Of a stretch of 41,685 bases of DNA, positions 6,670 through 39,597 are shown in pieces. The stretch lies in the IMG/VR virus record IMGVR_UViG_2541047729_000013; one strand, given 5' to 3'. Origin of the DNA: a virus (Duplodnaviria; Heunggongvirae; Uroviricota; Caudoviricetes). The notes below the pieces were generated by a model that did not search any database, had not been told where the DNA came from, and was given only the letters and a program-made list of their open reading frames with translations. Numbering within the stretch: position 1 is the first letter of the stretch; the number at the start of each line of letters is the position of its first letter. The position numbers and the translations under genes are program-made.

Positions 6670-6689
6670 TACTGTATAAATATACAGTT
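6670..6689 (+). promoter_or_regulatory. LexA (SOS) box overlapping a -10-like element
   Basis: TACTGTATAAATATACAGTT matches CTGT-N8-ACAG with AT-rich spacer, a near-consensus LexA operator, about 20 nt upstream of the RBS GGAGAA of the 6709 gene. Confidence 0.7.
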
Positions 6690-6708: not shown

Positions 6709-6966
6709 ATGCAGCAGTATCACTATCCACTGGAAGACGGATTTACCGAAAGGATTCACACGCCGGGAGGCGTCAGGTCACTGGTGGAGGGATCGCACTT
6801 GATGAAATTACTCCGGGATCTCGATAAGGATGGATTTAATGTCGATGGCCCACTTGCCGAACTGACTGCACTGATTAACTACGTCACCAGCTCACAGATG
6901 TCTATGCAGGATCTGCAAACACATCTCGACTATTGTGCCGAACAATTACGAAAACAAACCCGGTAA
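6709..6966 (+). CDS. SOS-regulated small protein, paralogous to the C-terminal domain of the Bro-N protein at 8352-9047 (candidate antirepressor)
   Basis: 85 aa from internal ATG with RBS; about 45 percent identity by eye between IHTPGGVRSLVEGSHLMKLLRDLDKDGFNVDGPLAELT...QTH and Bro C-terminus IHSPSGVLGLTENSLLMNLLNQLQEDGHDVSGAAAELT...QTH; LexA box immediately upstream. Confidence 0.6.
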   Translation: MQQYHYPLEDGFTERIHTPGGVRSLVEGSHLMKLLRDLDKDGFNVDGPLAELTALINYVTSSQMSMQDLQTHLDYCAEQLRKQTR

Positions 6967-6990
6967 ATTTAAAGGCCGCAAGAGCGGCCA

Positions 6991-7497: not shown

Positions 7498-7942
7498 CGT
7501 CGTAGAGCTCCTGAGCCATATCTTCGGCAGTGCGTGCAAACATCCTGCGCGAGATTGCATGAGATTTCTCGACGGACATCTTTGGGACCTCATGCATAAC
7601 ATTTTTGGGAGTTGTGTAATAGCCTATTACAATTTTCACACCTGACTTATGATTAATATCAGCATAATATACTTCTTGTTCAGACGTTTCACGACGAACA
7701 TAATCTGCCAGTTTTCCACATTTAAATTCCCCTCCCTGATGTTTTAAAATCTCCTCAACTGCACTATTTTCAGTGAAATACCGAATAAGAAATTTCTGTC
7801 CAGACTCTTCAGCATGAGGTATAACAGTATTATTGGAAGCCCGAACAATGGCCTTACTCAATATTTCATGGTCTTTATTTTTTTCTGATTTCCTCAAATG
7901 CTGCATTACTGTAGCTCTCTTCGTGTTCACGGGCACCCCCAA
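7487..7942 (-). CDS. Uncharacterised protein overlapping and upstream of the YafO-like gene (candidate antitoxin or partner)
   Basis: 139-151 aa depending on start (track TTG at 7942 or ATG near 7906); acidic C-terminus AQELYDDAE; no recognisable HTH. My reading of the printed sequence near 7858-7862 gave one extra nucleotide relative to the track frame; track coordinates are used. Confidence 0.45.
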   Translation of the reverse strand: MGVPVNTKRATVMQHLRKSEKNKDHEILSKAIVRASNNTVIPHAEESGQKFLIRYFTENSAVEEILKHQGGEFKCGKLADYVRRETSEQEVYYADINHKSGVKIVIGYYTTPKNVMHEVPKMSVEKSHAISRRMFARTAEDMAQELYDDAE

Positions 7943-8038
7943 CTACCTCTAGGGTAAACATTCTATCGAAAGTATACGCATACTGGCAAAAAAATAGGCA
8001 GGTATTTTCTGAAATGGGATCAATCAAACCACATAGGG

Positions 8039-8083
8039 TTGAAATAACGTGAGTTATGCATTTATTATTACCTTTGCGGTAAA
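8039..8083 (+). promoter_or_regulatory. Candidate promoter (TTGAAA-N17-TTATTA) with overlapping ATTACC-N5-GGTAAA operator
   Basis: -35/-10-like hexamers with 17-nt spacing; operator palindrome at 8067-8083 abuts the -10; CCACATAGGG box at 8029-8038 is shared with the modules at 6580 and 26358. Confidence 0.45.
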
Positions 8084-8108
8084 TTTACATCGCACTCCTC
8101 TTGTGCCA

Positions 8109-8195
8109 TAGTAATCGGGCATTGGAAAAATCCAGTGCCGGGATTGGCGTCCCGGATTACTAAAAGGCGCATTCACCGCGCAAGCGGTTTTTTTA
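8109..8195 (+). ncRNA. Candidate small structured RNA / leader riboregulator ending in an intrinsic terminator
   Basis: Closing stem TAGTAATC (8109-8116) / GATTACTA (8155-8162) encloses two hairpins (GGCATTGGA-AAAA-TCCAGTGCC and GGGA-TTGGCG-TCCC); followed by ACCGC-GCAA-GCGGT plus T7 run (8175-8195). No ORF; 150 nt upstream of the Bro-N start. Confidence 0.3.
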
Positions 8196-8351
8196 TGCGT
8201 ATAGCACGGCCACATTCGTATTATGGTGGGCTGTGTGGGGGCACCGAAAGGTGCGCCGGGTCCTTTTAGCCGGTTACGCCAACCCTGCACAGTTCACCAC
8301 CAACCGATTGGCGTCGGTAGTGGTGATTAACCAGACTAAAAGGTAACCACT

Positions 8352-9047
8352 ATGACAGCTACAAAAAGCACGTCCATTTTTTCTTTCGAATCCCAAGCCG
8401 ATATACGGGTAATCGTCATTAATGGTGAGCCATGGTTTATCGCTTCAGATGTTTGTCGGGCTATAGGCATAGCAAATCATCGAGATGCTGTTCGAAAACT
8501 TGATGATGATGAGAAGGGCGTCGCTTCAACCGACACCCCTGGCGGTGAGCAAGAATCGATCATCATCTCCGAGTCAGGCCTCTACACACTGATCCTCCGC
8601 TGCCGCGACGCAGTGACACCAGGCACTATCCCCTACCGCTTTCGTAAATGGGTTACAGGTGAGGTTCTTCCTCAGATCCGCCGCACCGGAAGTTACATTA
8701 AAAACTCGCTCCCGCAGGAAGAACGCATAAAGATGGTTGCCGACCAGGTAGCCAACGCCACAGCATCAGCAGTGATGCAGGCAATGAAGATAGAGAACAA
8801 AACCTACAGTGCCCCACTGAAGCCCGGCTACCGCAGCCTGATTCATTCGCCGTCTGGTGTTCTCGGCCTGACGGAGAACTCACTGCTGATGAATCTGCTG
8901 AACCAGTTACAGGAAGACGGGCACGACGTATCGGGCGCGGCGGCGGAGCTGACCACCATGTTCTGCTACATCGTCGGTGTGAGCAAGTGCCTGCGTGATA
9001 TCCAGACGCACGCGGAGTACATCAACGACAAGGCTGGGTTCTTCTGA
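8352..9047 (+). CDS. Bro-N domain antirepressor-like protein
   Basis: N-terminal hallmark IRVIVINGEPWFIASDVCRAIGIANHRDAVRKLDDDEKGV; C-terminal about 65 aa paralogous to the 6709-6966 protein; RBS AAGGT upstream. Confidence 0.75.
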   Translation: MTATKSTSIFSFESQADIRVIVINGEPWFIASDVCRAIGIANHRDAVRKLDDDEKGVASTDTPGGEQESIIISESGLYTLILRCRDAVTPGTIPYRFRKWVTGEVLPQIRRTGSYIKNSLPQEERIKMVADQVANATASAVMQAMKIENKTYSAPLKPGYRSLIHSPSGVLGLTENSLLMNLLNQLQEDGHDVSGAAAELTTMFCYIVGVSKCLRDIQTHAEYINDKAGFF

Positions 9048-9112: not shown

Positions 9113-9129
9113 ATTACCTTACGGGTAAG
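9113..9129 (+). promoter_or_regulatory. ATTACC-N5-GGTAAG operator-like palindrome upstream of the 9188 gene
   Basis: ATTACCTTACGGGTAAG, same family as the immunity-region sites; about 60 nt upstream of the ATG at 9188. Confidence 0.45.
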
Positions 9130-9187: not shown

Positions 9188-9820
9188 ATGAAAACAAATA
9201 CAACAAGAAAAGCGATGCCATACATTATCCCAGAAGCAGATTTCGACAGAAAACTGAACATGTCTGAGAAGAACACTAGTCACACCGAAAGCTACTTAGC
9301 GAAAGGTGTGGTTGATTTCGTTCTTCCGGGATTCACAACACCTTATGGTTATCGCCTTGTAAAATCTTGTAATGGCGATCATTACAGAATGATTACTACC
9401 AGCGATACTCCAGAAACGGTGTATGCGGTTAAGTTAATCTTTCGGGAAGATATCGTCGAAGCTAAAAGAACATGTACGCAGATCATGGTATGGCGTACGC
9501 CTAATGTTATTCATGACCGTGCTGTTCATGGTTTGCCTCAGATTTTTTTTCAGTTCTTCCTAGAGCAATATGCGATCGTTGTATCTGATGAGCAACAAAC
9601 AATCGATGGGAGAAGATTCTGGGAAAGAATGATTTCTTGGGCTATAAACACCCCGGGATATAATGTATACGTTTCAGATGGCTCTGAAGAAGATAGACCT
9701 CTTAGCTTCATGACATCATGGGATGATTTCTATAGCCAGTGGGCTGATTTCTGTTGGGGCAGTGATAAAGATGTGCATACCCACAGACTACTGGTTATAA
9801 GCAAAGATAAACTGCATTAA
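9188..9820 (+). CDS. Hypothetical protein (210 aa), accessory/moron gene
   Basis: Strong RBS GGAGG; followed by a clean intrinsic terminator; AT-rich codon usage unlike the structural genes; no motif I can assign. Confidence 0.6.
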   Translation: MKTNTTRKAMPYIIPEADFDRKLNMSEKNTSHTESYLAKGVVDFVLPGFTTPYGYRLVKSCNGDHYRMITTSDTPETVYAVKLIFREDIVEAKRTCTQIMVWRTPNVIHDRAVHGLPQIFFQFFLEQYAIVVSDEQQTIDGRRFWERMISWAINTPGYNVYVSDGSEEDRPLSFMTSWDDFYSQWADFCWGSDKDVHTHRLLVISKDKLH

Positions 9821-18141: not shown

Positions 18142-20612
18142 CAGAATCCCCCAACAGTAAGGCGAGGAATAACGGCAAGAACAGACAGCGGCAACGGATC
18201 AAGCTGACGGATTTTTACACGTCCGTTTTTGCCCCAGTTACTGTCCAGTTTCACTTCTACTTTTCCGGTAGCATCATCAACAGGATCATCGTAGAACTCG
18301 AATTCACGCTGTGGATATTCGTACCATTTACCGCCGGGCGTAGTCGCCCAGATGCCGCGACTGGCATTCACAACCAGAGTAACGGAGGGGATCACCTGTT
18401 TTTTGTCCAGCAGCGTTTCCTGTCCGTTAATGTTGATATCCAGTGTTTCGAATTCAGCAGTTATTGGCAGGCCGATGTGCACTACAGCCCCCGGAGATTC
18501 CAGCGTGACGGCACCTCCGGAAACCACTTTCTGTGGTTCCACGTTCGCATCAGAGAGAATGTTTACGGTCTGGCCTTCAAGATGAGACAGGCCTCCAAAT
18601 GTCCGGCGCGCCATCTGCCAGTTCGTGGTGGCCACATTCCTGAGGGATGGCGGGACGTTCCTGTTAGCACGAACCACTACAGCGGTATTGCTGGTTACAG
18701 AAATAATGTCGCAACGTAATTCTTTTGACACTTCATCGCCAGTATCAGGATCAGTTCCGGTATAAGGGAACTGTAGTTGCGCGCCGACATCACTACTGGT
18801 GAAGTACGCACCACCAGAAACACTGATTGTATATTCCGCACGGTAATCCCATTCACCAGAACCACCAGTGATGGTCATCGTTCTGTCAGACGTATTTCTT
18901 CCATCATAGCTAAGGCCAGAATCAACAAAGAAAGCATCTTCATCGCTGGTAAATAAACGGCTGGACAGTCGCTCGATGTATCTCACTGTTTGCCCGTTAA
19001 CGGTTCGGTTAATGACGAAATACACCGCATCTTCATTGCCTTCGCTGATACTGCATGTGCTTTCATATTTTCCGGTACTGGACTGTGGTGCCCATGCAAA
19101 AACCTGTTGATCACGCAAATAGGTCATCACCAGTAATTTACCGTCATCACGAATGCAGAAGGCGCTGGAGTAAGGGACAATAGAGAAGCACCAGTCAACA
19201 ATGCTGTGCTTCTGAAAAAGATGATTGGCAAGGATAGTAAGGTCGTTCCCCTGATAGCCGTCAACATCGAATGAGTAGGCCAGATCACGGACAACACTGC
19301 CTTTCTCCTGGACGAACAGAGCAATATTCGCCACGGCAATTGGTGGGACATTGCTCGAACCATTTGATCCCTGAGAGCTGAATGCAAATGATGATGGAGT
19401 TAATACTTTGTTCTGGTCGCCGGTGATGACGTACTCACCTCCGGAAGTCAGTGCCACCAGCGAACCGACATCAATCAGGTGGCGGATCTCATTAACCTGA
19501 CGCCCGGCATAGGTGTAGATAATTCTGTCGTCATCCTGCGTAGGATTGCTTTTGCCAAAATCCTTATAATCCCCAGTACGGCTGGCCCAGATAGTCTGAG
19601 GGAACGCTGTCGATGCGGCGAAGTAAAGACGTTGTTGATAATAAACAACCGTGCCAGGATAACCGTTAACACTGTTCCAGGCATATTTAGCCCATTTATA
19701 GCTGGCATTATCCTCGCCAACGACCTGCGAAGGGATATAGGAAATCACCTCAGCAGTTGCAGTAGTGCCATTTACAGCAGTTATACGGGCAATGCCAAAA
19801 CCACTGTGCAGATACTCCCACTCAATGCCAGTATCATCATCACCGGATCCGCCCCAGCCATCCCATGATGTGCCTTCTGTATGCGAAGGGCGCAAAGTGC
19901 CTGTTTTGCCTGCTGTAACGGCGCGATAGTAGTTACTGTCTGCACGGCGAATATCGCCAATCGACGTACTCTTACTGGTTTCCCATACCGGCACAGAATC
20001 CACTGCAGGCTGTTCCAGATAGAACAATTTGCCTACCTGCTCCGCGCCAAAAATAGAGGCGCTTGCCGTTAACGTAATTGTCCCGGTGCTGGCGCTGGCA
20101 TAAACCGTCACTGACTCATCAATATTGATATCTTCAAATGGCCCGTTCTTCGTTACCACATCAACCAGTTGCCAGTTGTCATGCGCATAGCGGCGCAGCT
20201 CTTTCGGCGGGTATGCCGGGTGAACCAGCGTAAGCACGTCGGCGCTTTGCGTGAATTTAATTCGGAACAGATCGGCTTCAGTATATGGCGTGGCAATTTC
20301 ATAAATAACATTGCTGCTGTTCAGCACCAACGCACCATCTTTGATAACGCGCATGTACTGGTGTCCGAACTCCAGAGCATAAGTCTGAACCGTCGAGAAT
20401 TGGAACGGGATCAGGCGGCATTTCCGATTTGGGTATTTGGCGGCACCGACAAAACGCGTACCAGGTCGATTCTCAACGCCGCCATACTGCCGCACGATAA
20501 AGTTATCGCACTTGCGCAATGCTACCTGGTACTTCGCCATGTCAATACGCCCGTACAACGACGGTCCAATCTCACCACCGGCAAAGCTGGGCTGGATCCA
20601 ACTGATAGCCAT
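18141..20612 (-). CDS. Tail tubular protein B-like (gp12-like position)
   Basis: 823 aa, immediately after the about 200-aa tubular-A-like gene; size and order as in T7-like tail modules. Confidence 0.5.
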   Translation of the reverse strand: MAISWIQPSFAGGEIGPSLYGRIDMAKYQVALRKCDNFIVRQYGGVENRPGTRFVGAAKYPNRKCRLIPFQFSTVQTYALEFGHQYMRVIKDGALVLNSSNVIYEIATPYTEADLFRIKFTQSADVLTLVHPAYPPKELRRYAHDNWQLVDVVTKNGPFEDINIDESVTVYASASTGTITLTASASIFGAEQVGKLFYLEQPAVDSVPVWETSKSTSIGDIRRADSNYYRAVTAGKTGTLRPSHTEGTSWDGWGGSGDDDTGIEWEYLHSGFGIARITAVNGTTATAEVISYIPSQVVGEDNASYKWAKYAWNSVNGYPGTVVYYQQRLYFAASTAFPQTIWASRTGDYKDFGKSNPTQDDDRIIYTYAGRQVNEIRHLIDVGSLVALTSGGEYVITGDQNKVLTPSSFAFSSQGSNGSSNVPPIAVANIALFVQEKGSVVRDLAYSFDVDGYQGNDLTILANHLFQKHSIVDWCFSIVPYSSAFCIRDDGKLLVMTYLRDQQVFAWAPQSSTGKYESTCSISEGNEDAVYFVINRTVNGQTVRYIERLSSRLFTSDEDAFFVDSGLSYDGRNTSDRTMTITGGSGEWDYRAEYTISVSGGAYFTSSDVGAQLQFPYTGTDPDTGDEVSKELRCDIISVTSNTAVVVRANRNVPPSLRNVATTNWQMARRTFGGLSHLEGQTVNILSDANVEPQKVVSGGAVTLESPGAVVHIGLPITAEFETLDININGQETLLDKKQVIPSVTLVVNASRGIWATTPGGKWYEYPQREFEFYDDPVDDATGKVEVKLDSNWGKNGRVKIRQLDPLPLSVLAVIPRLTVGGF

Positions 20613-24421: not shown

Positions 24422-26097
24422 TGTGATTGCCCACCCTGACCACTAACTGCATTCGCCATAGCTGACAAAACACTCGGATCCGAAGTTTTAGCTTCGCTTA
24501 GCGTCTTGGCACCCTGTGCCGCCGCCATCCCCATCGCCATCATTTGTTGCTGCTGTTGCTGCTGTGCCCGTTGCTGGCGAGCCTGCTCAACCTGTTCCTG
24601 CGGAACAATGACGGTTGGAGACACTCCGGACATATCAGCGAATGCATCGATCGCCTGATCAACGTTGAGTTTGTCGAGAGCTTCTGGTTTCGCTTGCGCA
24701 AGTTGACCAATGAAGTTAACCGTGGACGCCAGACTGGACAGGCCGATAGACTTCTGCGCCTGAGCCATGACGGAAATGTATTCGACCTTCAGGGGCATAC
24801 CTTCCATCACGTCTGGCGGTGGCGGCAGCATGTTTTTACGCACCATCATCGAGAAAGAGCGGTCAATGAGAGGATTAAGACATTCGTCGTTCAGACGCTC
24901 CAGAACCGGCCCCAACATCAGAAGTTTTTCTTCTTTCATTTCGATCACCGCTTCAACAGGCATCGAGCGGGTATTGATGTTCTGCAACATCATGAACAGA
25001 TCGACAAAGTAGGCGCTGTTAATGATTTGACGAGTGTCCTGAATGTCTGCCACCAAATCTGCTGTACTGGGGTTAACCAGATAAGCAGGCCTGAAACCAT
25101 CCTGACCAGTAATCTGATCGATATACGTGATGTCGCCAGGAAGAAGGGAGGCACGCTGATTCTTGAGGGAAGTCGGAGCAACCATCGGCGGATTGGTGGC
25201 TTTATCAATCAACTGCGACTTGCGCTTCTGAAGAAGCTGCAATGCCTTAACAGATCCAAGCGCCAGCATACCCGGGCATGATGATCCATAAACATCTTCG
25301 CCGTTAACTTCCCAGCGCGGAGCCATAATTGGAAACTCATCGAATCCGGACTCACGCAACAACTTGTCGTTATCGCCACCAACCTCGTAATAAACCGATT
25401 TGAATGGCTTGTTCTTGCTATCCAGCTTCGATGTATCGCGGTCAATGTTCGGGTAAACCGAATGCATCACTTCAATCCACTTCTCGTAGGTGCCGCTTTC
25501 CCACATGCTTTTTACGGATTCGCTGACGTTATTTAGTCCGAACTCCTGAACAAGCTGACGAACAGTCATAGAGAACTTGCGAAAACAGGTGTCCACACTG
25601 CCACGAGGTGAGTTAGCCAGGTAGTAACTGCCTATCGGGAATGGCATTGTGCGAATGATGTCCTCGTCATCCTCCAGCACTGCCATTGCACCAGTGCTGT
25701 ATGTGCCGAGGCTTCCGTATAACTGCGGCAGCGACTGATAGAGATTCGACTTATTGAACATATCGTTCATGCGGTTCTGCACCGCCTCAAGCCACAACTT
25801 AACAGGGCCATAATCCATCATTTCAGGATCTGGCGTAGCCAGGCGAAACCACGGACGCGCGGGGCTTGTGATGCCTGACATCATGCCGCTGGCGAGAGTG
25901 CGCGCCGCCATAGTCCCGGTCGAATCAATAATGCGTGTATTGCGTCGATCGTTACGGTTAACCTCAGAAGTCAGAAAGCGGGAACCACGCGGGTTGATGT
26001 AATCACTCAACTCGCGCCAGTGCGGCTCGAACGACTGACGCTCGCTTTCAAGTTGTGCGAACTGTTTGTTCAATCGCTCTTTAGTTGTTTCCGCCAT
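24418..26097 (-). CDS. Portal protein
   Basis: 559 aa; first large gene after the terminase genes; Gln/Ala-rich C-terminal tail; size and position typical of a podovirus portal. Confidence 0.75.
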   Translation of the reverse strand: MAETTKERLNKQFAQLESERQSFEPHWRELSDYINPRGSRFLTSEVNRNDRRNTRIIDSTGTMAARTLASGMMSGITSPARPWFRLATPDPEMMDYGPVKLWLEAVQNRMNDMFNKSNLYQSLPQLYGSLGTYSTGAMAVLEDDEDIIRTMPFPIGSYYLANSPRGSVDTCFRKFSMTVRQLVQEFGLNNVSESVKSMWESGTYEKWIEVMHSVYPNIDRDTSKLDSKNKPFKSVYYEVGGDNDKLLRESGFDEFPIMAPRWEVNGEDVYGSSCPGMLALGSVKALQLLQKRKSQLIDKATNPPMVAPTSLKNQRASLLPGDITYIDQITGQDGFRPAYLVNPSTADLVADIQDTRQIINSAYFVDLFMMLQNINTRSMPVEAVIEMKEEKLLMLGPVLERLNDECLNPLIDRSFSMMVRKNMLPPPPDVMEGMPLKVEYISVMAQAQKSIGLSSLASTVNFIGQLAQAKPEALDKLNVDQAIDAFADMSGVSPTVIVPQEQVEQARQQRAQQQQQQQMMAMGMAAAQGAKTLSEAKTSDPSVLSAMANAVSGQGGQSQ

Positions 26098-26344: not shown

Positions 26345-26424
26345 TATTACCAATTTAACCACATATGATTTATTTATCGTAGATAGTTGACATTTAACGC
26401 ACAAATTATTACCTTTCAGGTAAC
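26345..26424 (+). promoter_or_regulatory. Repeated promoter/operator module (ATTACC-N7-CCACATATG ... TTGACA ... ATTACCTTTCAGGTAAC)
   Basis: Near-identical copy of the module at 6567-6633 (operator core ATTACCTTTCAGGTAA identical); faces the tRNA-Arg gene 320 nt downstream. Confidence 0.5.
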
Positions 26425-26745
26425 CAAAGAGTTCATTCCGGTTACTAACCTGACTGGCTTGTCGTTAAATTGAACAGGTGGAGTGAGCTTTTATTTTGAG
26501 CAGTACGGCGTATGGCACATGCGCCGATAGCGGTCTGGATACGTTTAAGGGGCACCCTCCCTTGCTCGGGCAAACGAACCAGGTAGCCGGAATGTGCAAG
26601 TCGAGCGGTTTTATTCCGCGCACGGGGATTCACCATCCCGGCGATTCGGTGTGACGCCTCGGAAGAGACGAGGGTACAACGATGAGAGCATTTATGGAGC
26701 CGCGACAAAGTGTGGCGCCTTAACAGGCTAAGTGCTCTCAGCGTT

Positions 26746-26822
26746 GTGGCATTAGCTCAGTTGGACAGAGCAACCGCCTTCTAAGCGGTTGGTCGCAGGT
26801 TCGAATCCTGCATGCCACGCCA
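26746..26822 (+). tRNA. tRNA-Arg (anticodon UCU), phage-encoded
   Basis: Hand-folded cloverleaf: acceptor GTGGCAT/ATGCCAC, D-stem GCTC/GAGC, anticodon stem ACCGC/GCGGT with loop CTTCTAA (anticodon TCT), T-arm GCAGG-TTCGAAT-CCTGC, discriminator G, encoded CCA. Confidence 0.85.
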
Positions 26823-26866: not shown

Positions 26867-26907
26867 GCGGTGATGGTTTCCCTTGAAGGACTATCACCGC
26901 CCTTTTT
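26867..26907 (+). terminator. Hairpin plus T-run downstream of the tRNA
   Basis: GGCGGTGAT ... ATCACCGCC (long loop) followed by CTTTTT. Confidence 0.4.
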
Positions 26908-28954: not shown

Positions 28955-29625
28955 TGATTGCCATCCTGACGTTCTTTCAGTCTCTTCCTGGCTGCCGCTA
29001 TGCGATCAGCAATTGTCACATTCACATTAACATCCAGGCGTTCTTTGAATGCGTTGACGTCGACGTGCTTACCAATCAGTTCGAGGTTCTTCACCTTGTC
29101 AGGCCATTTAATTTTTTTGAGGATTGTCTCTATCGAATCCTCGTTCATGTTCATGATGGTCGATGACAGATCAAAGCCACTAAGCGTAGTGCGCCAGATT
29201 TTCGGCCACTCGCGGATTGGCTTAAGGCTCCCATCGTCGTTGAGGATGTCGATCACGTCCATCTGGTCGATCTCCACCAGGCGCATGAGAACGTAATCAG
29301 CACTGACGCGCATTCGTTTGTTGCGCTCCTCCATCAACTCGGCAATCCGTTTTTGAATGCGTTCATCGCGCATCATGACACTGGCTTTAACTGCCGCTGT
29401 ATTTGGGGAGAATCCTGCGTTAATCGCTGCCTGAGTCTGGTTTTCAGGCGTTTTGATGTATGACTGGCAATAAGCCTCCTGCATTGCTGTTAGTGGCTTA
29501 AATTGCGTTGATTTGCGTTTATAGGCTTTAGGTTCAGCAGGCATCATAACCACCGTGGTAATAGTTACCGTTGTGGTAATAGTACCATGCAAAATAAAGC
29601 CGCCATAGTTGGCGGCAGTATTCAA
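28951..29625 (-). CDS. Terminase small subunit
   Basis: Basic DNA-binding-like protein immediately upstream of TerL with 4-nt overlap; true start may be the internal Met pair near 29547. Confidence 0.65.
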   Translation of the reverse strand: MNTAANYGGFILHGTITTTVTITTVVMMPAEPKAYKRKSTQFKPLTAMQEAYCQSYIKTPENQTQAAINAGFSPNTAAVKASVMMRDERIQKRIAELMEERNKRMRVSADYVLMRLVEIDQMDVIDILNDDGSLKPIREWPKIWRTTLSGFDLSSTIMNMNEDSIETILKKIKWPDKVKNLELIGKHVDVNAFKERLDVNVNVTIADRIAAARKRLKERQDGNQ

Positions 29626-29665: not shown

Positions 29666-30007
29666 TCACACTATTAATTTCGTTTCATGCCAGCCTTTAG
29701 TCACCCAGCATTGCGAGTCACCATCACACGGGCATGAATTCACAGGAACTCTCTCGCCGCACTTACCGCAACGTTTTCTGCTGATCGATTTTATACGCCC
29801 GTGCACGCGTGCATCATCCTGGCGGATCAGTAACGCTATATACTCACCAAATTCGTAAGGCGCACGCCCGGGGCGACGCGTGGCACAGTTACGCTCCAGC
29901 ATTTCAATTTCCTGAGCATCAAGCACAATTTCCAGCTTACGCACACCAGATGCAGCTTGTCTGGCTCTCTGAGCGGCTTTGCGCTCTGCTGCTGATTTAG
30001 CCATCAA
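29666..30007 (-). CDS. Small basic protein with C-terminal Cys-rich zinc-ribbon-like motif (possible late-gene regulator)
   Basis: Arg/Lys-rich N-terminus; CGKCG...CPCDGDSQC near the C-terminus; last gene before the terminase operon. Confidence 0.45.
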   Translation of the reverse strand: MMAKSAAERKAAQRARQAASGVRKLEIVLDAQEIEMLERNCATRRPGRAPYEFGEYIALLIRQDDARVHGRIKSISRKRCGKCGERVPVNSCPCDGDSQCWVTKGWHETKLIV

Positions 30008-31957: not shown

Positions 31958-32302
31958 TCAGAACTCTTCGATGTTCCAGCCACCACCTGCTTTCTTTGGT
32001 TTAACCGTTACCCCGATGATTCGGAACGGATACTGATCTGCGGCGACTTTGGTTTTCACCCTGGCGTCGTCGGTCCAGAAACCTTTCACTTCGTGCAGTT
32101 CCATCTCTCCGGTGGCGAGCATCACAGCGAAATCTGGCGTATAGAACGTGTTGTCAGCTAACCGCAGCTTGATACCCTCGAATCGATACTAGGCGATTTC
32201 CCCTGCACGTTTACGCAGCTCAAGGTGCTGGCAATACGCAGATTCAGTTTTGTTCATCTGGCCTGTTTTGAGTCGACCAAGAGCCTGTATCTGTTTTCTC
32301 AT
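31958..32302 (-). pseudogene. DUF1064-like phage gene interrupted by an in-frame amber codon
   Basis: Minus-strand ATG at 32302 reads 37 codons, then TAG at 32191-32189, then continues in the same frame for 76 codons (YRFEGIKLRLADNTFYTPDF...HEVKGFW...) to TGA at 31958; absent from the ORF track because of the internal stop. Confidence 0.5.
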
Positions 32303-32304
32303 GA

Positions 32305-32383
32305 TTTACCTCTGAGGTAATTAAAAACCACATAAGACATGAAATCAATAGAGTTTATAATATTTTGTTACCTAACAGGTAAT
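32305..32383 (-). promoter_or_regulatory. Two operator-like palindromes flanking a candidate internal promoter
   Basis: TTTACCTCTGAGGTAAT (32305-32321) and GTTACCTAACAGGTAAT (32367-32383) between the P-like gene stop and the DUF1064-like start; TATAAT-like element between them. Confidence 0.4.
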
Positions 32384-32419: not shown

Positions 32420-33196
32420 TTACTTGATAAATCCTGCCGCCTTTCCCCGCCTGTATTCCTCCATCAGCCACTGCGCCGGTGTTATTCCCCCAAGGGTGGC
32501 GGCGTTAGGCATGCACCCGAAACTTCGCCCTGGTGGATGGTAAACGTCTCTCCCTGTGTCCGGAGGTGTACTCATGGGCTCTGGCTTTGCCTGTATGCTG
32601 ATCACCGGATCGGGTATCTGCTGTCCGGAAGCCACCTTTTTCGCCCAATCATCGAGCAGCCTGCGCGCGTGTTTCTCAACCTCACTCTCGCTAAGCTGGC
32701 GCTGATACATTGCACGACGGGTATCACATACGACCCAGTACATAACCGGATGCCGCCACGGGAATCTTTCGGGACCACCAGGATATAAACTTTTTTCCTT
32801 GCTGTACCGGTGAAACTCCGCCATCACATCGTCAATGGTGACGCCAAGAACCATCTTGCTGTCTTTGCACCACTTGATGAATTGCCCTGGCGACGGCCAG
32901 AACGGAGATTCACTGGCGCGGGCGTGGCGCATACCAGCGTTAACCTGTTCCATTGTAGTGATCCCATTCTCCAGAAACGCAAGCATCCATTGCTTACGGA
33001 ATTCATTAAGTTTGTTCTGCTCCCTTATGGTCGAAACGCTTGCAGGAAATGCAGCCTGTAACTGGACAAATAGTTCATTGAAAATTCTAGCAACCTGCTC
33101 CTTTTTGCCATTGCTGTCACGCCGCTCTTCATGCACAGCAACACCATGCTCACGTAAGCGATCGTACTCATTGAGAAGTTCTGGAGTTGATTTCAT
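32420..33196 (-). CDS. Replication protein P-like (DnaB helicase loader)
   Basis: FPASVSTIREQNKLNEFRKQWMLAFLENGITTMEQVNAGMR closely parallels the recalled lambda P segment FPASLANRDQNEVNEIRRQWVLAFRENGITTMEQVNAGMR. Confidence 0.8.
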   Translation of the reverse strand: MKSTPELLNEYDRLREHGVAVHEERRDSNGKKEQVARIFNELFVQLQAAFPASVSTIREQNKLNEFRKQWMLAFLENGITTMEQVNAGMRHARASESPFWPSPGQFIKWCKDSKMVLGVTIDDVMAEFHRYSKEKSLYPGGPERFPWRHPVMYWVVCDTRRAMYQRQLSESEVEKHARRLLDDWAKKVASGQQIPDPVISIQAKPEPMSTPPDTGRDVYHPPGRSFGCMPNAATLGGITPAQWLMEEYRRGKAAGFIK

Positions 33197-34016
33197 CCCA
33201 CACCCCTTCTATCCAGTCAGTGTTATTCCAGTCAAGCTCATCGCTTTTCCCGGCATTTTTTGATTTTCCCCTGATATGATTTACGTGCCTGGCGAATTTT
33301 TGTTCCCACTGAACCTGCGTGAACACTTTGCCCTCAGCCATCCAGTAATCCCGGAATGCAGCAAGTTCAGCAGGTGTAAATTCCGGTTCCGGCAGGGCCG
33401 TTCCCCACAGCGCAGCACGCCGCCGAAAATCTGGCGACGGTAGCCAGCCATCTGTCATCGGAAATTTCCCGATGGGTTCACTCAGGCCATCCAGAAATTC
33501 AGGTTCTGCCACCTGCAACGGCGTACTGTTCGCTTCACTGGTCGGAGCACCCTCGCACACGTGCGCTATGTGTGGGGTTTTATATATATCTTCCTCTTCC
33601 TCTTCCTCTGGTAACTCCTTTTGTAACGCTGTTGGCGTTACTTTTTGCGTTACTCGTTTTCGATGCTCTGCCACTCTTCTATTCGTAAGTGCACGTTTTT
33701 TCGATGATTCTCCATTATGTCGCTCAAAGTTTGGAAGAATTAGTTTGCCGTCATGATAAGCAAGCCATCCGACGCTAATGAGGGCGTCAGCAAATCCTGT
33801 AATAAAAGCGAGTCTATCAAGTACTCCTTTTGTAACGCTGCCAGCGTTACCGTCTATTGTTTGCTGGTCAGCCCATGCCCATATACGAACCAGCTTTCCA
33901 AGAACAGCATCTGGATCAATACCCAGAATTTCTGCTATCTGAAAAATTTCAGGTTTATCAGGAGTGATAACTTCAACCTTAATCCAGCTGCTTGCCATAG
34001 GTTTCCCCTCTTGCAC
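33168..34016 (-). CDS. Replication initiator / replisome organiser (O-like)
   Basis: N-terminal organiser-like segment (IWAWADQQTIDGN...), acidic linker (EEEEEED), DnaT-like C-terminal part; immediately upstream of and overlapping the P-like gene. Confidence 0.65.
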   Translation of the reverse strand: MQEGKPMASSWIKVEVITPDKPEIFQIAEILGIDPDAVLGKLVRIWAWADQQTIDGNAGSVTKGVLDRLAFITGFADALISVGWLAYHDGKLILPNFERHNGESSKKRALTNRRVAEHRKRVTQKVTPTALQKELPEEEEEEDIYKTPHIAHVCEGAPTSEANSTPLQVAEPEFLDGLSEPIGKFPMTDGWLPSPDFRRRAALWGTALPEPEFTPAELAAFRDYWMAEGKVFTQVQWEQKFARHVNHIRGKSKNAGKSDELDWNNTDWIEGVWDEINSRTSQ

Positions 34017-34191
34017 TCTTTAGTGCACAAGCAAATTCATTACGATGGCGGTTGGCGCTATTCATTGCACATTCAACACATGTTCCGTTCAGAACATACC
34101 TTTCAGAGAGATGGCCGTGACGGCACCGCTTTCCTGTGAAATAGCGATTTAACCCGGCTTTTGCGGCCTCCATTCTGGTTACTATCTTCAA
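33979..34191 (-). CDS. Small Cys-rich ORF between cro-like and O-like genes (uncertain)
   Basis: 70 aa from a TTG start; CRHGH...CVEC motif; occupies the cII-like position but with no similarity to lambda CII that I can see. Confidence 0.3.
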   Translation of the reverse strand: MKIVTRMEAAKAGLNRYFTGKRCRHGHLSERYVLNGTCVECAMNSANRHRNEFACALKSARGETYGKQLD

Positions 34192-34267
34192 TTTTTCCGC
34201 CCCTTTTTGTTATTGATATTGGCTATTTTGCACAATTGGAAAATTTGATCAACCAGATTTGGTTTTT

Positions 34268-34317
34268 TATTACCTTTGAGGTACGAATAGATATGAAAAG
34301 ACCGCCGGGTGGCGGTC
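34268..34317 (-). promoter_or_regulatory. tR1-like hairpin plus operator half-site downstream of the cro-like gene
   Basis: Minus-strand hairpin AGACCGCC-ACCC-GGCGGTCT followed by TTTTCA (34291-34317); adjacent ATTACCTTTGAGGTAC (34268-34284). Confidence 0.4.
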
Positions 34318-34339
34318 TACAGAGGGTTGTAGCTGGATA

Positions 34340-34570
34340 TCATGAGTAGAAGAAGTATGCCAGTTCTGCTTTTGAGCGCAGCCATTGTCTTGTTTTACAG
34401 GCTTTAAAAAGCCCATTCATCAATACCTTACCTGGCATTTTGCGCTTACCTGTTAAGTGAGTCTGGATATAGTGACTCGTCGTTCCGGCTTCCTGTGCGA
34501 AGGCTTCACGCTCATCCGGAGTAAGTGCAAGCCAGTGCTTTTTGAAATCGAAATGTCCGTTATCGCTCAT
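34340..34570 (-). CDS. Cro-like HTH regulator
   Basis: 76 aa, divergent from the repressor gene across the operator region; HTH-like segment REAFAQEAGTTSHYIQTHLTGKR. Confidence 0.55.
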   Translation of the reverse strand: MSDNGHFDFKKHWLALTPDEREAFAQEAGTTSHYIQTHLTGKRKMPGKVLMNGLFKACKTRQWLRSKAELAYFFYS

Positions 34571-34610
34571 AGCTATTGCCTGATATTTATTTCAGATAAT
34601 AAATATTCAC

Positions 34611-34670
34611 CCATAAGGTAACAAAAATCAAGGATAGTTACCTATGGGGTGCATTTACCTGTTGGGTAAT
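34611..34670. promoter_or_regulatory. Immunity-region operator cluster (OR-like), three ATTACC-N5-GGTAAT-type sites
   Basis: TTCACCCATAAGGTAAC, TTACCTATGGGGTGC and TTTACCTGTTGGGTAAT within the 154-bp repressor/cro-like intergenic region. Confidence 0.6.
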
Positions 34671-34724
34671 ATTGCTTTAAATTGAATCATCTACTGATTC
34701 ATATATGAGGCGATTTCCCAGAAA

Positions 34725-35309
34725 ATGAAAAGTATCCAGGACGTCCGCAGGCAAAATCTCAACGACTTGATCGACCGTGAATTCAATGGTGTTCAGACGC
34801 GGATGGCTGAAAAACTTGGAACTCAGGCAAATCTGGTAAACCGCTGGGCTCTTGGCAAGAAGGTTATCGGCGACCAGGTTGCACGAAAAATTGAAGCTGC
34901 CGCCAATAAACCCCGTAACTGGCTTGATATTGATCGCTCGCTTTCTCAGGAGGGTTTTCAGCCTGTCGGCCCGAGCGATATAGGTCAGCTGGCGGCTCAC
35001 AACCTGGAACGCTGGATGAGCGAAAGCCGCGACCTTTCAACGCAGGGAAAACTACACCGCGCATCCGGCGTCGCCCAGGTGACAATCAGCCGCCTGTTAA
35101 ACAATGAGGTCAGCGTTTCCATTTCCACCCTGGAGAATGTTGCATCCGCATTCGGGCGTCACGGCTATGAATTACTGATTCACCCGCACGACCCTGCGAC
35201 CATCAACTATGATCGCTCGCGCTACGCATTGTTACCCGAAACCGAGAAAGCAAAGATCGAAAGTTACATTGAATTTGTCATCAACCAGAACGAAAAAAAC
35301 AAACAATAA
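34725..35309 (+). CDS. CI-like prophage repressor without peptidase S24 domain
   Basis: N-terminal XRE-type HTH (TRMAEKLGTQANLVNRWALGKK) and a second HTH-like segment; no Ser-Lys autocleavage motifs; divergent from the cro-like gene; followed by a terminator. Confidence 0.7.
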   Translation: MKSIQDVRRQNLNDLIDREFNGVQTRMAEKLGTQANLVNRWALGKKVIGDQVARKIEAAANKPRNWLDIDRSLSQEGFQPVGPSDIGQLAAHNLERWMSESRDLSTQGKLHRASGVAQVTISRLLNNEVSVSISTLENVASAFGRHGYELLIHPHDPATINYDRSRYALLPETEKAKIESYIEFVINQNEKNKQ

Positions 35310-35330
35310 AATCATATTTTTCAGTAAGTA

Positions 35331-35354
35331 AGCCGCCTTCTGGCGGCTTTTTTA
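35331..35354 (+). terminator. Rho-independent terminator after the repressor gene
   Basis: AGCCGCC-TTCT-GGCGGCT followed by TTTTTT. Confidence 0.75.
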
Positions 35355-35365
35355 TTGCCTATACG

Positions 35366-35444
35366 ATTACCTAACGGGTAATTTTTTTAACTCATATCTA
35401 TTGACATCAAACCAGATACGCATAATCATTACCTCAACGGTAAC
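35366..35444 (+). promoter_or_regulatory. OL-like operators and early-left promoter
   Basis: ATTACCTAACGGGTAAT (35366-35382), TTGACA at 35401-35406, ATTACCTCAACGGTAAC (35428-35444) and a further GGTAA half-site, upstream of the first early-left ORF. Confidence 0.55.
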
Positions 35445-35624: not shown

Positions 35625-36655
35625 GTGAATTATCAATCATCGAAATCACACCAGATATGGCACCAAGAATTTACGTTGAAAAAGGACTAGAAAAGTTTCT
35701 CGAGCAGATCCGCGAAGGTGTTAATGAAGTGCCTGACATTAGCACAGACAAAGGAAGAAAGCGCATTGCATCTCTGGCTGCGAAGGTTTCAAGAAGTAAA
35801 ACAGCGGTAGAAAAACCAGGACGTGATTATCTGAAACGCCTGAAAGAACAGCCGAAAGTAGTTGAAGCAGAGTTGCGACGCTTCGTAACCGAATGCGATC
35901 GGCTTCGTGATGAAGTACGCCGCCCACTCACCGAGTGGGAAAATGCTGAGAAATTACGCACTGAAGCACTGCAACAACGCCTGACAAATTTGCGAGCACT
36001 GGCTGACGTGATCGATCTCTCCGGAAACTACTTGCCATCATCTGATATTCAGGAACGAATTCAAGAGGCTAAATCAGTAGCACTTGATGAAAGTTGGCAG
36101 GAGTACGCAGCAGAAGCTGGAGTAGCCAAGGATTCAACCATCCAGAAACTGGAAGAATCACTCGCAGTAGCTCAAAAACGCGAGCATGAAGCCGCTGAGC
36201 TGGAGCGACTTCGCAAAGAAGCGGAGGAAAAAGCGCGCATTGAGCGAGAAGAGAATATCCGCCGGGAAGCTGCTGAACAGGCCAGGCTCGAAGCTGAACA
36301 AAAAGCGAAAGCTGAAATTGATGCTGCGGCACGCCTGGCGGCGGAAGAAAAAGCACGTGCTGAAGTAGCAGAACGTCAGCGAATTGAAGCAGAGCAGCGT
36401 GCACGACGCGAAAAAGAAGAAGCCGTTGCCGAGGAACGCCGACGCCAAGAGGCGGAAGAAAAAGCCCGCCTTGACGAACAGAAGCGTATCGCCGACGAAG
36501 AAGCGCGCCGAGCTGCAGATAAAGAGCATCGCCGTACCGTTAACCGCAGAGTAATCGCAGATCTGATAGCCCAAGGCATTCCCGAAGAATTCGCGCAGAA
36601 AGCAATGTTGGCTATCGCTGGCGGCAAAGTGCAGGACGCGTATATCAAATATTGA
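35621..36655 (+). CDS. Coiled-coil protein with Glu/Ala/Lys/Arg-rich repeats (DUF1351-like position)
   Basis: 344 aa; central AEEKAR/EAEQ-type repeats; precedes the YqaJ/RecT module. Confidence 0.55.
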   Translation: MSELSIIEITPDMAPRIYVEKGLEKFLEQIREGVNEVPDISTDKGRKRIASLAAKVSRSKTAVEKPGRDYLKRLKEQPKVVEAELRRFVTECDRLRDEVRRPLTEWENAEKLRTEALQQRLTNLRALADVIDLSGNYLPSSDIQERIQEAKSVALDESWQEYAAEAGVAKDSTIQKLEESLAVAQKREHEAAELERLRKEAEEKARIEREENIRREAAEQARLEAEQKAKAEIDAAARLAAEEKARAEVAERQRIEAEQRARREKEEAVAEERRRQEAEEKARLDEQKRIADEEARRAADKEHRRTVNRRVIADLIAQGIPEEFAQKAMLAIAGGKVQDAYIKY

Positions 36656-39188: not shown

Positions 39189-39301
39189 GTGTGCTGCTAA
39201 GGCACTGGAGCAAATGGTCAGGATGGTACTTATTCCTGGCCTCTGTTTCAGCATGGCTTTATCTGCTGGCATTAATTTTCAGAGAGGGTTGGATTAAGTG
39301 A
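39185..39301 (+). CDS. Small hydrophobic peptide (38 aa), translationally coupled
   Basis: ATG overlaps the AlpA-like stop (ATGA) and its TGA overlaps the next GTG start; MSVLLRHWSKWSGWYLFLASVSAWLYLLALIFREGWIK has one predicted transmembrane helix; below track cutoff. Confidence 0.35.
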   Translation: MSVLLRHWSKWSGWYLFLASVSAWLYLLALIFREGWIK

Positions 39302-39597
39302 GAAAGTTAAGCCGACTTGAAAAATATCACATGAACAAGGTTTCAATGCGCAGCCCTTCAAAGGTTGTTGCCGTTACTCCTGCGGCGATAGAGATCGAAA
39401 AACGCGCGATTGAAAGAGAGAAAAAAGGGCAATTCCGCATTGCCGCTCACCTTTGGCTTCAGTGTATGGATGTTGCTTCTGGTGATGTTGAACGTGCAAG
39501 GATCGCGGTTCGCAGGGACCAATGTATCACAAAAGGTAACGGCCTTCGCCGTGGCGACTATAGCGGCATAGGATGTTGTGGGGTGGTTTATGACTAA
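39298..39597 (+). CDS. Hypothetical protein
   Basis: 99-aa ORF from GTG (or ATG near 39331); overlaps the methyltransferase start. Confidence 0.4.
   Translation: MRKLSRLEKYHMNKVSMRSPSKVVAVTPAAIEIEKRAIEREKKGQFRIAAHLWLQCMDVASGDVERARIAVRRDQCITKGNGLRRGDYSGIGCCGVVYD

Follow-up and report, generated by a model that had tools for sequence, protein, structure and literature searches.

A conserved palindrome, very probably the operator of an SPC32H-type repressor, is dispersed among the promoter regions of a phiV10-like prophage

A palindrome, ATTACC-N5-GGTAAT, lies beside the CI-like repressor gene of a prophage and recurs at distant promoter regions, raising the questions of which protein it serves, how far its distribution extends beyond the immunity region, and whether its outlying copies wire accessory cargo genes directly into the lysis-lysogeny switch, as an initial reading made without database searches (the sequence-only reading) had proposed. 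The whole stretch of DNA analysed here (the window; 41,685 nucleotides) is a Uetakevirus prophage of the epsilon15/phiV10-like kind.

A genome-wide scan with a position weight matrix and a background estimate, the check proposed along with that reading, placed the palindrome far above expectation. Exact copies number two (6617-6633 and 35366-35382) against 0.00 expected; matches with at most one mismatch number 11 against 0.07, and those with at most two number 15 against 1.10, a count reached in none of 100 shuffles. The exact core TTACC-N5-GGTAA is present in 10 copies against 0.017 expected, and in a ranking of all 5-nt half-sites at gaps of 0-10 the combination of TTACC with a gap of 5 came first with these 10 copies, the maximum over 30 shuffles being 2-3. 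The weight matrix, trained on 32 sites from four other genomes and then applied to the window, identified 10 sites scoring 18.7-25.8, where the top score over 40 shuffles was 15.7, and four further sites at 12.1-15.4. All 14 sites with scores of at least 12 are non-coding, although by a curated CDS map only 9.6% of the window is; likewise, 11 of the 11 sites with at most one mismatch, together with those at 7942 and 34269, lie wholly outside CDSs. Matches with two mismatches at 2728 and 14373 were set aside as chance, being intragenic, scoring 8 or less, and corresponding to the approximately one such match expected. The operators occupy at least nine regions over ~29 kb and are not confined to OR and OL. 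The dispersed positions listed earlier all proved correct, with 34268-34284 better given as 34269-34285, but that list was incomplete, lacking a tandem pair upstream of terS (29546-29562 and 29564-29580) and the site at 7942-7958.

The genes and regulatory elements of the predicted switch are as follows.

34725-35309, plus strand: rep, the CI-like repressor gene, encoding an HTH DNA-binding domain at the N-terminus and, after it, domains for dimerisation and tetramerisation, without an S24 peptidase domain
34340-34570, minus strand: cro-like gene, divergent from rep, matching phrog_35 "transcriptional repressor" (E = 5.6e-13) and syntenic with epsilon15 gp39 and phiV10 p41
6670-6689, plus strand: LexA box ahead of ant, with one mismatch, the sole match in the window
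6709-6966, plus strand: ant, encoding a small antirepressor that matches PDB 5D50_E (E = 4.1e-47)
8119-9047, plus strand: second antirepressor module, comprising an isrK RNA (8119-8194), a C4-type antisense RNA (8219-8304) and a Bro-N protein (8352-9047) with an Ant-like C-terminal domain

By protein comparison, Rep of the window is 100% identical to that of phiV10 and 42-43% identical to those of epsilon15 (gp38) and SPC32H. It matches the SPC32H Rep structure (PDB 5D50_A, E = 4e-42) over residues 1-190, its full length, its C-terminal half aligning with the dimerisation/tetramerisation region; a PDB search with Rep yielded no match other than SPC32H Rep (5D50/5D4Z). The S24 peptidase domain of the lambda CI/LexA type is absent, and the Pfam families recorded for Rep homologues are of HTH type only. 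Even Reps sharing just 42% identity agree in every residue of NLVNRW, a segment of the N-terminal DNA-binding domain, which fits an invariant operator half-site. The isrK and C4 RNAs are Rfam matches (74.5 and 77.7 bits); the Bro-N protein contains the Bro-N domain, and its C-terminal stretch 150-226 matches both PDB 5D50_E (E = 1e-13) and phrog_450. The cro-like protein has no match in Pfam or NCBIfam. Phage ZX5 is reported to have a Rep of the same sequence as phiV10 Rep, and hence as that of the window; its overexpression abolished free phage and lowered holin and endolysin transcripts by 99.97-99.99%, and overexpression of the ZX5 counterpart of the Bro-N/Ant-like protein led to less lysogeny (PMC9782041). 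SPC32H Rep is described in PMC9638917 as a tetramer on palindromic sites that is disassembled by Ant; PMC9986798 describes a p53-like tetramerisation fold in its C-terminal domain, a fold linked to DNA looping in another repressor, Rco of plasmid pLS20, and states that its mode of repression is not yet detailed.

Around rep the palindrome is arranged in two clusters, with one more site past the cro terminator.

34654-34670: OR rep-proximal operator, TTTACCTGTTGGGTAAT; one mismatch, score 22.1; kept in six genomes
34637-34653: middle position of OR, reduced to the left half-site, GTTACC; four mismatches, score 8.2, equal to background
34606-34622: OR cro-proximal operator, TTCACCCATAAGGTAAC; three mismatches, score 15.4; overlaps the -35 and spacer of the predicted cro promoter
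34624-34596, minus strand: predicted cro promoter, TTGTTA-17-TATTAT, a promoter-like match
35366-35382: OL distal operator, a perfect palindrome, score 22.2; ~20 bp upstream of the -35 and 62 bp from the proximal site
35401-35429, plus strand: predicted early-left promoter, TTGACA-17-AATCAT, matching the consensus at 10 of 12 positions
35428-35444: OL proximal operator, score 18.7; its first two bases are those that end the -10, and it runs on over the predicted transcription start
34318-34299: cro terminator
34269-34285: operator past the cro terminator, upstream of the gp40-like and replication genes; two mismatches, score 14.0

Three palindromes had been claimed between the repressor and cro-like genes; three positions are indeed there, but in the window only one of them is a good site, another being weak and the third a half-site. 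By position the three-part OR layout is nevertheless real, since epsilon15 and SPC32H have full sites there at the same spacings of 17 and 30 bp. The position at 34269 is also occupied in phiV10, Tyrion, epsilon15 and SPC32H. The proposal that the palindrome marks OR and OL beside the repressor gene, and dispersed promoters as well, is borne out: Rep is a full-length homologue of SPC32H Rep, and the same sites are annotated in epsilon15. The GenBank record of epsilon15 (AY150271.2) carries seven features labelled "protein_bind: repressor", possibly bioinformatic predictions, that read ATTACC-N5-GGTAAT and lie upstream of terS, upstream of gp3, in the gp19/tailspike gap, beside the repressor gene (three) and in the replication/RuvC gap. 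That record is without annotation of its own OR sites, the second members of the terS and replication pairs, and the site upstream of lysis. On the strength of the homology and of this annotation, the palindrome is very probably the binding site of Rep.

Outside the immunity region, the sites fall mostly at conserved junctions of core lytic units and at two antirepressor modules. The core lytic junctions are those at terS, gp3/portal and ant/tailspike, at the point where the replication operon restarts, and at the DUF1064 operon.

32367-32383: distal operator of the promoter after the replication genes, score 22.6; member of a conserved 62-bp pair
32305-32321: proximal operator of the same promoter, score 22.8; overlaps the -10 (TTTAAT running into TACC), the transcription start and the RBS of a truncated DUF1064-like ORF
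29616-29599: terminator upstream of the terS pair
29546-29580: terS tandem operator pair, 18 bp apart; one mismatch each, scores 12.1 and 21.0; flanked by the terminator and the start codon of terS
26408-26424: operator separating gp3/portal on the minus strand from tRNA-Arg on the plus strand, score 19.6; a conserved TTGACA promoter toward the tRNA overlaps it with its -10 region
26746-26822, plus strand: tRNA-Arg
6617-6633: exact copy of the palindrome in the control region from which ant and the tailspike gene diverge; top-scoring operator of the window (25.8)

The probable DUF1064 promoter, as read from the alignment, is TTGATT-17-TTTAAT; a plus-strand TATAAT promoter between the sites at 32305 and 32367 was rejected as not conserved in relatives. 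The terS pair is present in seven of eight genomes, and the epsilon15 record annotates its first site. The TTGAC of the promoter at 26408 is kept in six genomes, as is the operator at 6617; the corresponding epsilon15 annotations are at 2931-2947 and 19895-19911, respectively. An operator at the lysis cassette is absent from the window and from TL-2011b and present in epsilon15, phiV10, Tyrion and SPC32H; Rep control is therefore not obligatory for every late unit.

The remaining sites bear on the proposal concerning cargo genes.

7942-7958: operator downstream of a minus-strand promoter into two ORFs; two mismatches, score 13.2
7989-7960, minus strand: promoter TTGCCA-18-TAGAAT, directed toward these two ORFs of unknown function
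8067-8083: operator at the promoters of the isrK-C4-antirepressor module, score 21.6
9113-9129: operator upstream of a 210-aa ORF (9188-9820), score 19.8; begins within a TAATAT -10-like hexamer

The operator at 8067 overlaps the -10 of TTGAAA-18-TATTAT (8039-8068) and abuts the -35 of TTTACA-17-CATAGT (8084-8112). The accessory ORFs beside 7942 and 9113 have no matches in Pfam, PADLOC or NCBIfam, and in PHROGs match families of unknown function only, the 210-aa ORF falling in phrog_1349. Accessory targets number only three: the ORFs at 7487-7933 and 6991-7602, the 210-aa ORF and tRNA-Arg. To this extent cargo genes do appear to be connected to the switch, but most sites belong to core lytic junctions and to the two antirepressor modules. 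Two loci that had been counted among the accessory targets change character. The "SOS small gene" does have the operator at 6617-6633 upstream and a LexA box at 6670-6689, but it encodes the Ant antirepressor (PDB 5D50_E, E = 4e-47) and is not cargo; the "structured RNA/Bro-N locus", likewise correctly credited with an operator at 8067-8083, is the isrK-C4-antirepressor module, whose protein has an Ant-like C-terminal domain. With an operator on the -10, accessory genes would be off in the lysogen, the opposite of a classical moron.

The distribution was compared among eight genomes: the window, phiV10, TL-2011b, Tyrion, epsilon15, SPC32H and two prophages with Reps 54-59% identical. The same junctions recur in these genomes (OR and OL, past the cro terminator, replication/DUF1064, terS, gp3/portal, ant-tailspike and the accessory region), and in alignments the half-sites are invariant while spacers and flanks have diverged. 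A spacing of 62 bp was seen 14 times and one of 18 bp seven times; the 62-bp spacing at OL is kept in seven of the eight genomes, the 62-bp pairs enclose a promoter, and the tandem pairs are spaced by 17-18 bp. In the two divergent prophages the top palindrome was again TTACC-N5-GGTAA. These comparisons show that the palindrome is deeply conserved. Among Rep homologues found by protein search down to 52% identity the recognition segment reads NLVNRW, NLVSRW, NLINRW or NLISRW, with one NVISRW, and a scan of IMG/VR for Rep loci returned only loci with an identical Rep. Because recognition segment and operator are both invariant, or nearly so, in the relatives examined, no co-variation ties Rep to the palindrome.

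We consider it likely, with good confidence, that the palindrome is a Rep operator at nearly every promoter, acting by direct silencing that is released through Ant. Rep would be of the SPC32H type, tetrameric and not cleaved by RecA, and inactivated on binding by the LexA-controlled Ant. In place of a lambda-like cascade from a single immunity region, the genome would comprise units that each start with their own promoter and one or two operators, usually just after a terminator. Such predicted units include PR/PRM at OR, OL, the replication restart, the DUF1064/nin-like unit, terS-terL and gp3-portal/tRNA, and further ant/tailspike, the isrK-C4-Bro-N module and two accessory promoters. A consensus scan placed promoter-like sites overlapping operators at OL, at PR, and at 7989-7960 and 8039-8068. 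At OL, the DUF1064 promoter, 9113 and 8067 the operator begins with the two closing bases of the -10 and extends over the predicted transcription start, so that bound Rep would exclude RNA polymerase. The OL and DUF1064 promoters each have a further operator exactly 62 bp upstream of the first, approximately six helical turns away, and therefore both sites could be held by a single tetramer or by two, with the promoter in a small loop. A loop of 62 bp is very tight. In the lysogen, all lytic units and both antirepressor genes would be directly silenced; upon DNA damage LexA would release ant, Ant would strip Rep from the DNA, and all units, the antirepressor genes included, would be derepressed together, giving positive feedback.

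Two other readings of the sites deserve weight. One, which we regard as possible though doubtful, is that the cro-like protein occupies the palindrome, either as its principal binder or as an additional one, and would use the dispersed sites to dampen rep and the early promoters in lytic growth. Cro proteins of the lambda type bind the same operators as CI. The divergent small gene does match a "transcriptional repressor" family, and the three OR positions are of unequal quality, as they would be if each of two proteins had its own ranking of the sites. Against this, the protein has no Pfam or NCBIfam match, the annotators of epsilon15 credit the sites to the repressor, and the lytic repressors of several other phages, PY54 Cro for example, use separate sites of their own. 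Binding by the cro-like protein would be compatible with binding by Rep at the same sites.

The other reading concerns the late junctions (tailspike, portal and terS), where the sites might be auxiliary anchors or activator-type sites working with a second palindrome, so that a phage activator drives the late promoters and Rep plays a minor part; this too we hold to be rather unlikely. The second palindrome (AACCATATATGGTT-like; CATAT-NN-GGTT) is unannotated and adjoins several operators. At tailspike and portal the operators lie 45-57 bp upstream of this motif, which is followed by an invariant GGTAATA(G/A)AAT block resembling a -10; their distance from the likely start is ~60-90 bp on its upstream side, which would also allow for activation, or for no direct effect at all. 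A consensus scan found no sigma-70 promoter overlapping the operator at the tailspike, portal or terS junctions, where a consensus -35 is lacking, and promoters read by hand at the late junctions, such as TTGCAT-17-GGTAAC for terS, were weak. The lysis promoter of the window has kept the second motif and lost the Rep operator, and candidate regulators are encoded, among them a PerC-like protein (39298-39597) and a phrog_536 protein (29666-30004) whose gene lies just upstream of terS. On the other side, the terS pair, with a terminator at one end and the start codon at the other, must overlap whichever promoter serves terS; moreover, overexpression of ZX5 Rep cut holin and endolysin transcripts by >99.9%, though possibly indirectly. 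Compared by eye with known sites, the second motif did not fit a DnaA box, an IHF site, a sigma-54 promoter or a CRP site.

It is highly improbable that the dispersed copies are passive remnants of a duplicated promoter cassette, or a homology patch for module exchange, without a regulatory role outside the immunity region: although they do stand at junctions whose downstream genes differ between relatives (DUF1064 versus RuvC, post-9113-type accessory genes, swapped tailspike modules) and the OL and DUF1064 promoters are alike in cassette layout, exact spacings are kept, the motif is absent from the coding 90% of the genome, and a comparison of phiV10-type with epsilon15-type genomes shows unchanged half-sites amid diverged 5-nt spacers and flanks, which argues for selection on protein contacts and not for recent copying.

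Beyond Rep silencing as outlined above, we raise a more speculative and decidedly tentative extension, that of a one-tier genome-wide switch in which a p53-like tetrameric Rep would form 62-bp promoter micro-loops and occupy tandem late sites, the AACCATATATGGTT-type palindrome would mark late and middle promoters for a separate factor, and immunity specificity would reside not at the DNA but possibly at Rep-Ant or Rep-Rep interfaces. The ground for this view of specificity is that Reps with only 42-59% identity share one operator.

Several features of this arrangement have counterparts in known systems. Epsilon15 has the same palindrome and a homologous repressor, with sites at the same positions (terS, gp3/portal, ant/tailspike, beside rep, and between replication and the next operon); the window differs in its extra sites at 7942, 8067 and 9113, in an accessory/antirepressor region that epsilon15 is without, and in lacking the site upstream of lysis. 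The Rep-Ant switch of SPC32H (PDB 5D50, 5D4Z) shares a full-length Rep homologue, a near-identical Ant, a LexA box before ant and the same operator motif and layout, whereas the second, Bro-N-fused antirepressor with an Ant domain, under isrK/C4, has no annotated equivalent in SPC32H. Judged from its sequence, then, the window belongs to a Uetakevirus Rep-operator regulon, with a homologous repressor, the operator palindrome, sites at the corresponding junctions and a predicted LexA-controlled Ant.

Among less related phages, P1 likewise places one repressor at many scattered promoters, one of which drives a C4-type RNA and then an antirepressor: its C1 protein has many dispersed, asymmetric 17-bp operators, one of them controlling c4-icd-ant (immI). 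The operator in the window is instead palindromic and also stands at late operons, while P1 late promoters are not known to be controlled by C1 and use the Lpa activator; Rep is unrelated to C1 by sequence, and the likeness is functional only. With lambda CI the window shares three operator positions flanked by divergent rep and cro-like genes, a second cluster at the early-left promoter, and 17-bp palindromes. In contrast to lambda, the window has no S24 autocleavage domain, would be induced through antirepressors, has OL directly downstream of rep on the same strand, and carries operators beyond the immunity region. Lac repressor, a tetramer that mediates short loops with an auxiliary operator, likewise combines paired palindromes, one over the start and one whole helical turns upstream (62 bp here); the proteins are unrelated, and looping by Rep is a proposal only. 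The asymmetric, oriented stoperators of mycobacteriophage L5 lie inside transcribed regions, and the sites of the window differ in being palindromic and restricted to intergenic promoter regions.

The feature is thus solid but largely known, operators having already been annotated in epsilon15; a full-text literature search with the motif and phage terms found no relevant paper. What is provided here is a complete predicted operator map for the phiV10 lineage (phiV10, ZX5, TL-2011b and many E. coli prophages with identical Rep), in which the operators are unannotated in the phiV10 GenBank record and the ZX5 paper. The map also corrects the notion of a special wiring of accessory genes, as structural, packaging and both antirepressor promoters carry the site too. 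With a repressor site at nearly every promoter, the phage would therefore be a set of terminator-bounded, directly Rep-controlled units. The conserved spacings of 62 bp and 18 bp provide a testable link to the tetrameric structure of SPC32H Rep. There is a practical side as well, since phiV10-type phages serve as reporters for E. coli O157:H7, an application in which Rep-controlled promoters matter.

We confirm that the palindrome ATTACC-N5-GGTAAT (17 bp), described as recurrent in the sequence-only reading, is enriched in the window far beyond chance. Two exact copies occur against 0.00 expected, 11 matches with at most one mismatch against 0.07, and 15 with at most two against 1.10, a number reached by none of 100 shuffles; the exact core TTACC-N5-GGTAA is present ten times (0.017 expected). 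A motif-free search over all 5-nt half-sites and gaps of 0-10 ranked TTACC with gap 5 first (10 copies; shuffles, three or fewer). The weight-matrix scan that the earlier reading had proposed, run with a matrix trained on 32 sites from four other genomes and with the window left out, returned ten sites scoring 18.7-25.8 bits, above the best of 40 shuffles (15.7), and four more at 12.1-15.4, followed by scores of 8.2 or less. All 11 matches with at most one mismatch, together with those at 7942 and 34269, are wholly non-coding, in a window that is 9.6% non-coding by the curated gene map; the other two 2-mismatch matches sit within genes, a number that fits chance expectation. To the sites listed previously we add one at 7942-7958 and a tandem pair immediately before terS.

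From its sequence relationships the window is a prophage of the epsilon15-like temperate podophages (genus Uetakevirus). Its immunity region is 97-99% identical to Escherichia phages phiv142-3, ZX5, TL-2011b and phiV10 and ~77% identical to Enterobacter phage Tyrion, and the remainder is a mosaic of the same phage group; with a methyltransferase gene at one end and the integrase start codon at the other (41685), it has the appearance of a prophage that was cut at int. The CI-like repressor gene rep encodes a 194-aa product that does not differ from phiV10 Rep; its identity to Tyrion Rep is 78%, and to the epsilon15 and SPC32H Reps 42-43%. It aligns over its full length with the SPC32H repressor of known crystal structure (PDB 5D50 chain A, E = 4e-42) and, by this structure-database match and the families of its homologues, has no S24 peptidase domain. 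Gene 6709-6966 encodes the small antirepressor Ant (PDB 5D50 chain E, E = 4e-47) and is preceded by the sole LexA box of the window (6670-6689).

For epsilon15, the type phage of the genus, both the motif and its scattered placement have been recorded before: the GenBank entry lists seven features labelled "protein_bind: repressor, lysogeny", every one of which reads ATTACC-N5-GGTAAT. Three of the seven adjoin the repressor gene; of the rest, one precedes terS, one precedes gp3/portal, one falls between gp19 (the ant homologue) and the tailspike gene, and one separates the replication genes from RuvC. That entry leaves other good matches unannotated (24703-24719, 33340-33356, 33357-33373, 33387-33403, 35968-35984 and 29-45), among them all of the OR cluster (the operators separating rep from the cro-like gene), the site preceding the lysis genes, and the second site of each of the terS and replication pairs. 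SPC32H Rep is described as a tetramer on palindromic DNA that is dismantled by tetrameric Ant (PMC9638917); its C-terminal domain is said to adopt a p53-like tetramerisation fold, which accounts for DNA looping in Rco, the pLS20 plasmid repressor, and the repression mechanism of SPC32H Rep, in the words of the same source, "has not been extensively characterized" (PMC9986798). ZX5 Rep, reported to be the same as phiV10 Rep in sequence, abolished free phage on overexpression and lowered holin and endolysin transcripts by 99.97-99.99% (PMC9782041). We consider it likely that Rep binds the sites in the window, as operators of an epsilon15/SPC32H-type switch set over nearly all promoters; looping by Rep at paired sites is held with less confidence.

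Operators occupy the same junctions in all eight genomes scanned, namely the window, epsilon15, TL-2011b, phiV10, Tyrion, SPC32H and two prophages whose Reps are 54% (Serratia) and 59% (E. coli) identical.

Operator positions across the eight genomes
Upstream of terS: tandem pair, conserved
About 90 bp upstream of gp3/portal: single site, conserved
Divergent region between ant and tailspike: single site, conserved
Early-left promoter (OL): pair 62 bp apart, conserved
OR: cluster, conserved
After the cro terminator: single site, conserved
After the replication genes: pair 62 bp apart, conserved
Accessory region: variable sites
Just upstream of int, attP region, a position beyond the window: 2-mismatch site ATTACCTTAAAGGTATA (phiV10 26869-26885; epsilon15 26881-26897)

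Across these genomes the 62-bp spacing recurs 14 times and the 18-bp spacing 7 times. A site upstream of the lysis cassette is present in epsilon15, phiV10, Tyrion and SPC32H and missing from the window and TL-2011b. The corresponding region of the window, 3088-3393, directly adjoins the tailspike gene, with no O-antigen acetylase gene between; TL-2011b has a different gene arrangement upstream of its lysis cassette. Alignments of the junctions show no variation in the half-sites, but the phiV10 and epsilon15 lineages differ in their flanks and 5-nt spacers. NLVNRW, a segment of the Rep N-terminal DNA-binding domain, is likewise constant across the lineages compared, which is consistent with the invariant half-site; with both constant, there is no co-variation to prove which protein reads the site. 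Since Reps only 42-59% identical (window 34725-35309; epsilon15 32690-33286; a further relative, 33739-34335) keep the half-site and an NLVNRW-type segment, operator specificity seems common to the whole genus, and how immunity specificity is determined becomes a separate question. Conservation is much higher in Ant than in Rep: 70 of 83 aligned residues are the same in SPC32H Ant.

Three operators had been claimed between rep and the cro-like gene. The three-part layout stands by position, but only one of its members is a good site.

OR in the window
34654-34670: good site
34637-34653: half-site position, four mismatches, score at background
34606-34622: weak cro-proximal site, three mismatches

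We regard the layout as real because full sites stand at the equivalent positions in epsilon15 and SPC32H, likewise spaced by 17 and 30 bp. In the window, the -35/spacer of a predicted promoter (TTGTTA-17-TATTAT) overlaps the cro-proximal site. At OL, where the promoter scan placed TTGACA-17-AATCAT at 35401-35429, the proximal operator starts in the final two -10 bases and spans the start site, and the distal one lies 62 bp upstream of it. Alignment reveals an OL-like layout at the promoter after the replication genes (TTGATT-17-TTTAAT/TACC, the slash marking the end of the -10 element), whose proximal operator also spans the ribosome-binding site of a truncated DUF1064-like ORF. A -10 ending in AT and then TACC recurs at 9113 (TAATAT/TACC) and 8067 (TATTAT/TACC; predicted promoter 8039..8068); the 7942 operator follows the -10 of predicted promoter TTGCCA-18-TAGAAT, the terS tandem operators (29546-29562 and 29564-29580) fill the 35 bp from terminator to start codon. 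These positions fit simple occlusion of RNA polymerase. The 26408 operator extends over the -10 region of a TTGACA promoter that is conserved and reads towards tRNA-Arg. Only 37 codons (MRKQIQALGRLKTGQMNKTESAYCQHLELRKRAGEIA*) remain of the DUF1064-like ORF (32190-32303, -) that follows the 32305 operator; as the genes beyond it differ from those of phiV10, the site directly after this operator-promoter cassette is a mosaic junction.

The proposal that cargo genes are wired into the switch holds only in part. The 6617 operator adjoins ant, which LexA and Rep thus probably both keep shut. The 8067 operator lies on the promoters of a module with an Rfam-supported RNA pair.

Accessory-region features
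8119-8194, +: isrK RNA (Rfam, 74.5 bits)
8219-8304, +: C4-type antisense RNA (Rfam, 77.7 bits)
8352-9047, +: Bro-N protein, directly downstream of both RNAs
7487-7933, 6991-7602 and the 210-aa ORF: true accessory targets, function unknown for all three

The C-terminal domain of the Bro-N protein is homologous to Ant (PDB 5D50_E, E = 1e-13), and phrog_450 is common to both proteins. Region 8119-9047 is thus a predicted second, RNA-controlled antirepressor module, resembling Gifsy-1 isrK-anrP and P1 immI; in Gifsy-1 the isrK promoter is described as driving an isrK-orf45-anrP antirepressor operon (PMC4825925). In ZX5, the protein annotated at the equivalent place is likewise 231 aa long, and its overexpression is reported to lessen lysogeny. 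With ant and an Ant-domain antirepressor beside them, the 6617 and 8067 loci are therefore parts of the immunity circuit and not cargo. Relative to ZX5, the window has roughly 1.1 kb (6967-8051) of additional DNA separating ant from the isrK/Bro-N module. It contains two minus-strand ORFs of unknown function (phrog_1651, phrog_9503) with their own predicted promoter, and operators flank that promoter.

A second element distinct from the operator, CATAT-NN-GGTT, occurs in 4-7 exact copies per genome in six complete phage genomes (0.2-0.35 expected), and the epsilon15 GenBank record contains no annotation of it.

Copies of the second motif
Window: 3148-3158 (-), 6578-6588 (-), 6551-6561 (+), 26357-26367 (-), 8027-8037 (-), 32326-32336 (-)
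phiV10: 24736-24749
Tyrion: 26452-26465

At the lysis, tailspike, portal, replication-restart and DUF1064 junctions this element is placed 24-57 bp from the Rep operators, towards the promoter; at tailspike and portal the operator is 45-57 bp upstream of it. In phiV10 and Tyrion the copy before the lysis genes is a full palindrome, AACCATATATGGTT. The element also marks the window's own lysis promoter, from which the Rep operator has been lost. Candidates for the factor that binds it are a late activator, the Cro-like protein and a host factor.

We envisage a genome of terminator-bounded units, each restarted by a promoter under direct Rep control, where Rep on overlapping operators would occlude RNA polymerase. 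The four DNA-binding domains of a tetramer would match two palindromes, so that the 17-18 bp tandem pairs and the 62-bp pairs (~six helical turns) are plausible one-tetramer units, the latter perhaps held through a tight loop. The window adds a phiV10-lineage member, carrying a few extra sites, to a kind that is already known from epsilon15 and annotated there; most worth an experiment are the second palindrome and the conserved spacing within operator pairs. If Rep controls its own antirepressors, induction would feed back positively, and under Rep control at 26408 tRNA-Arg would become a lytic-phase function.
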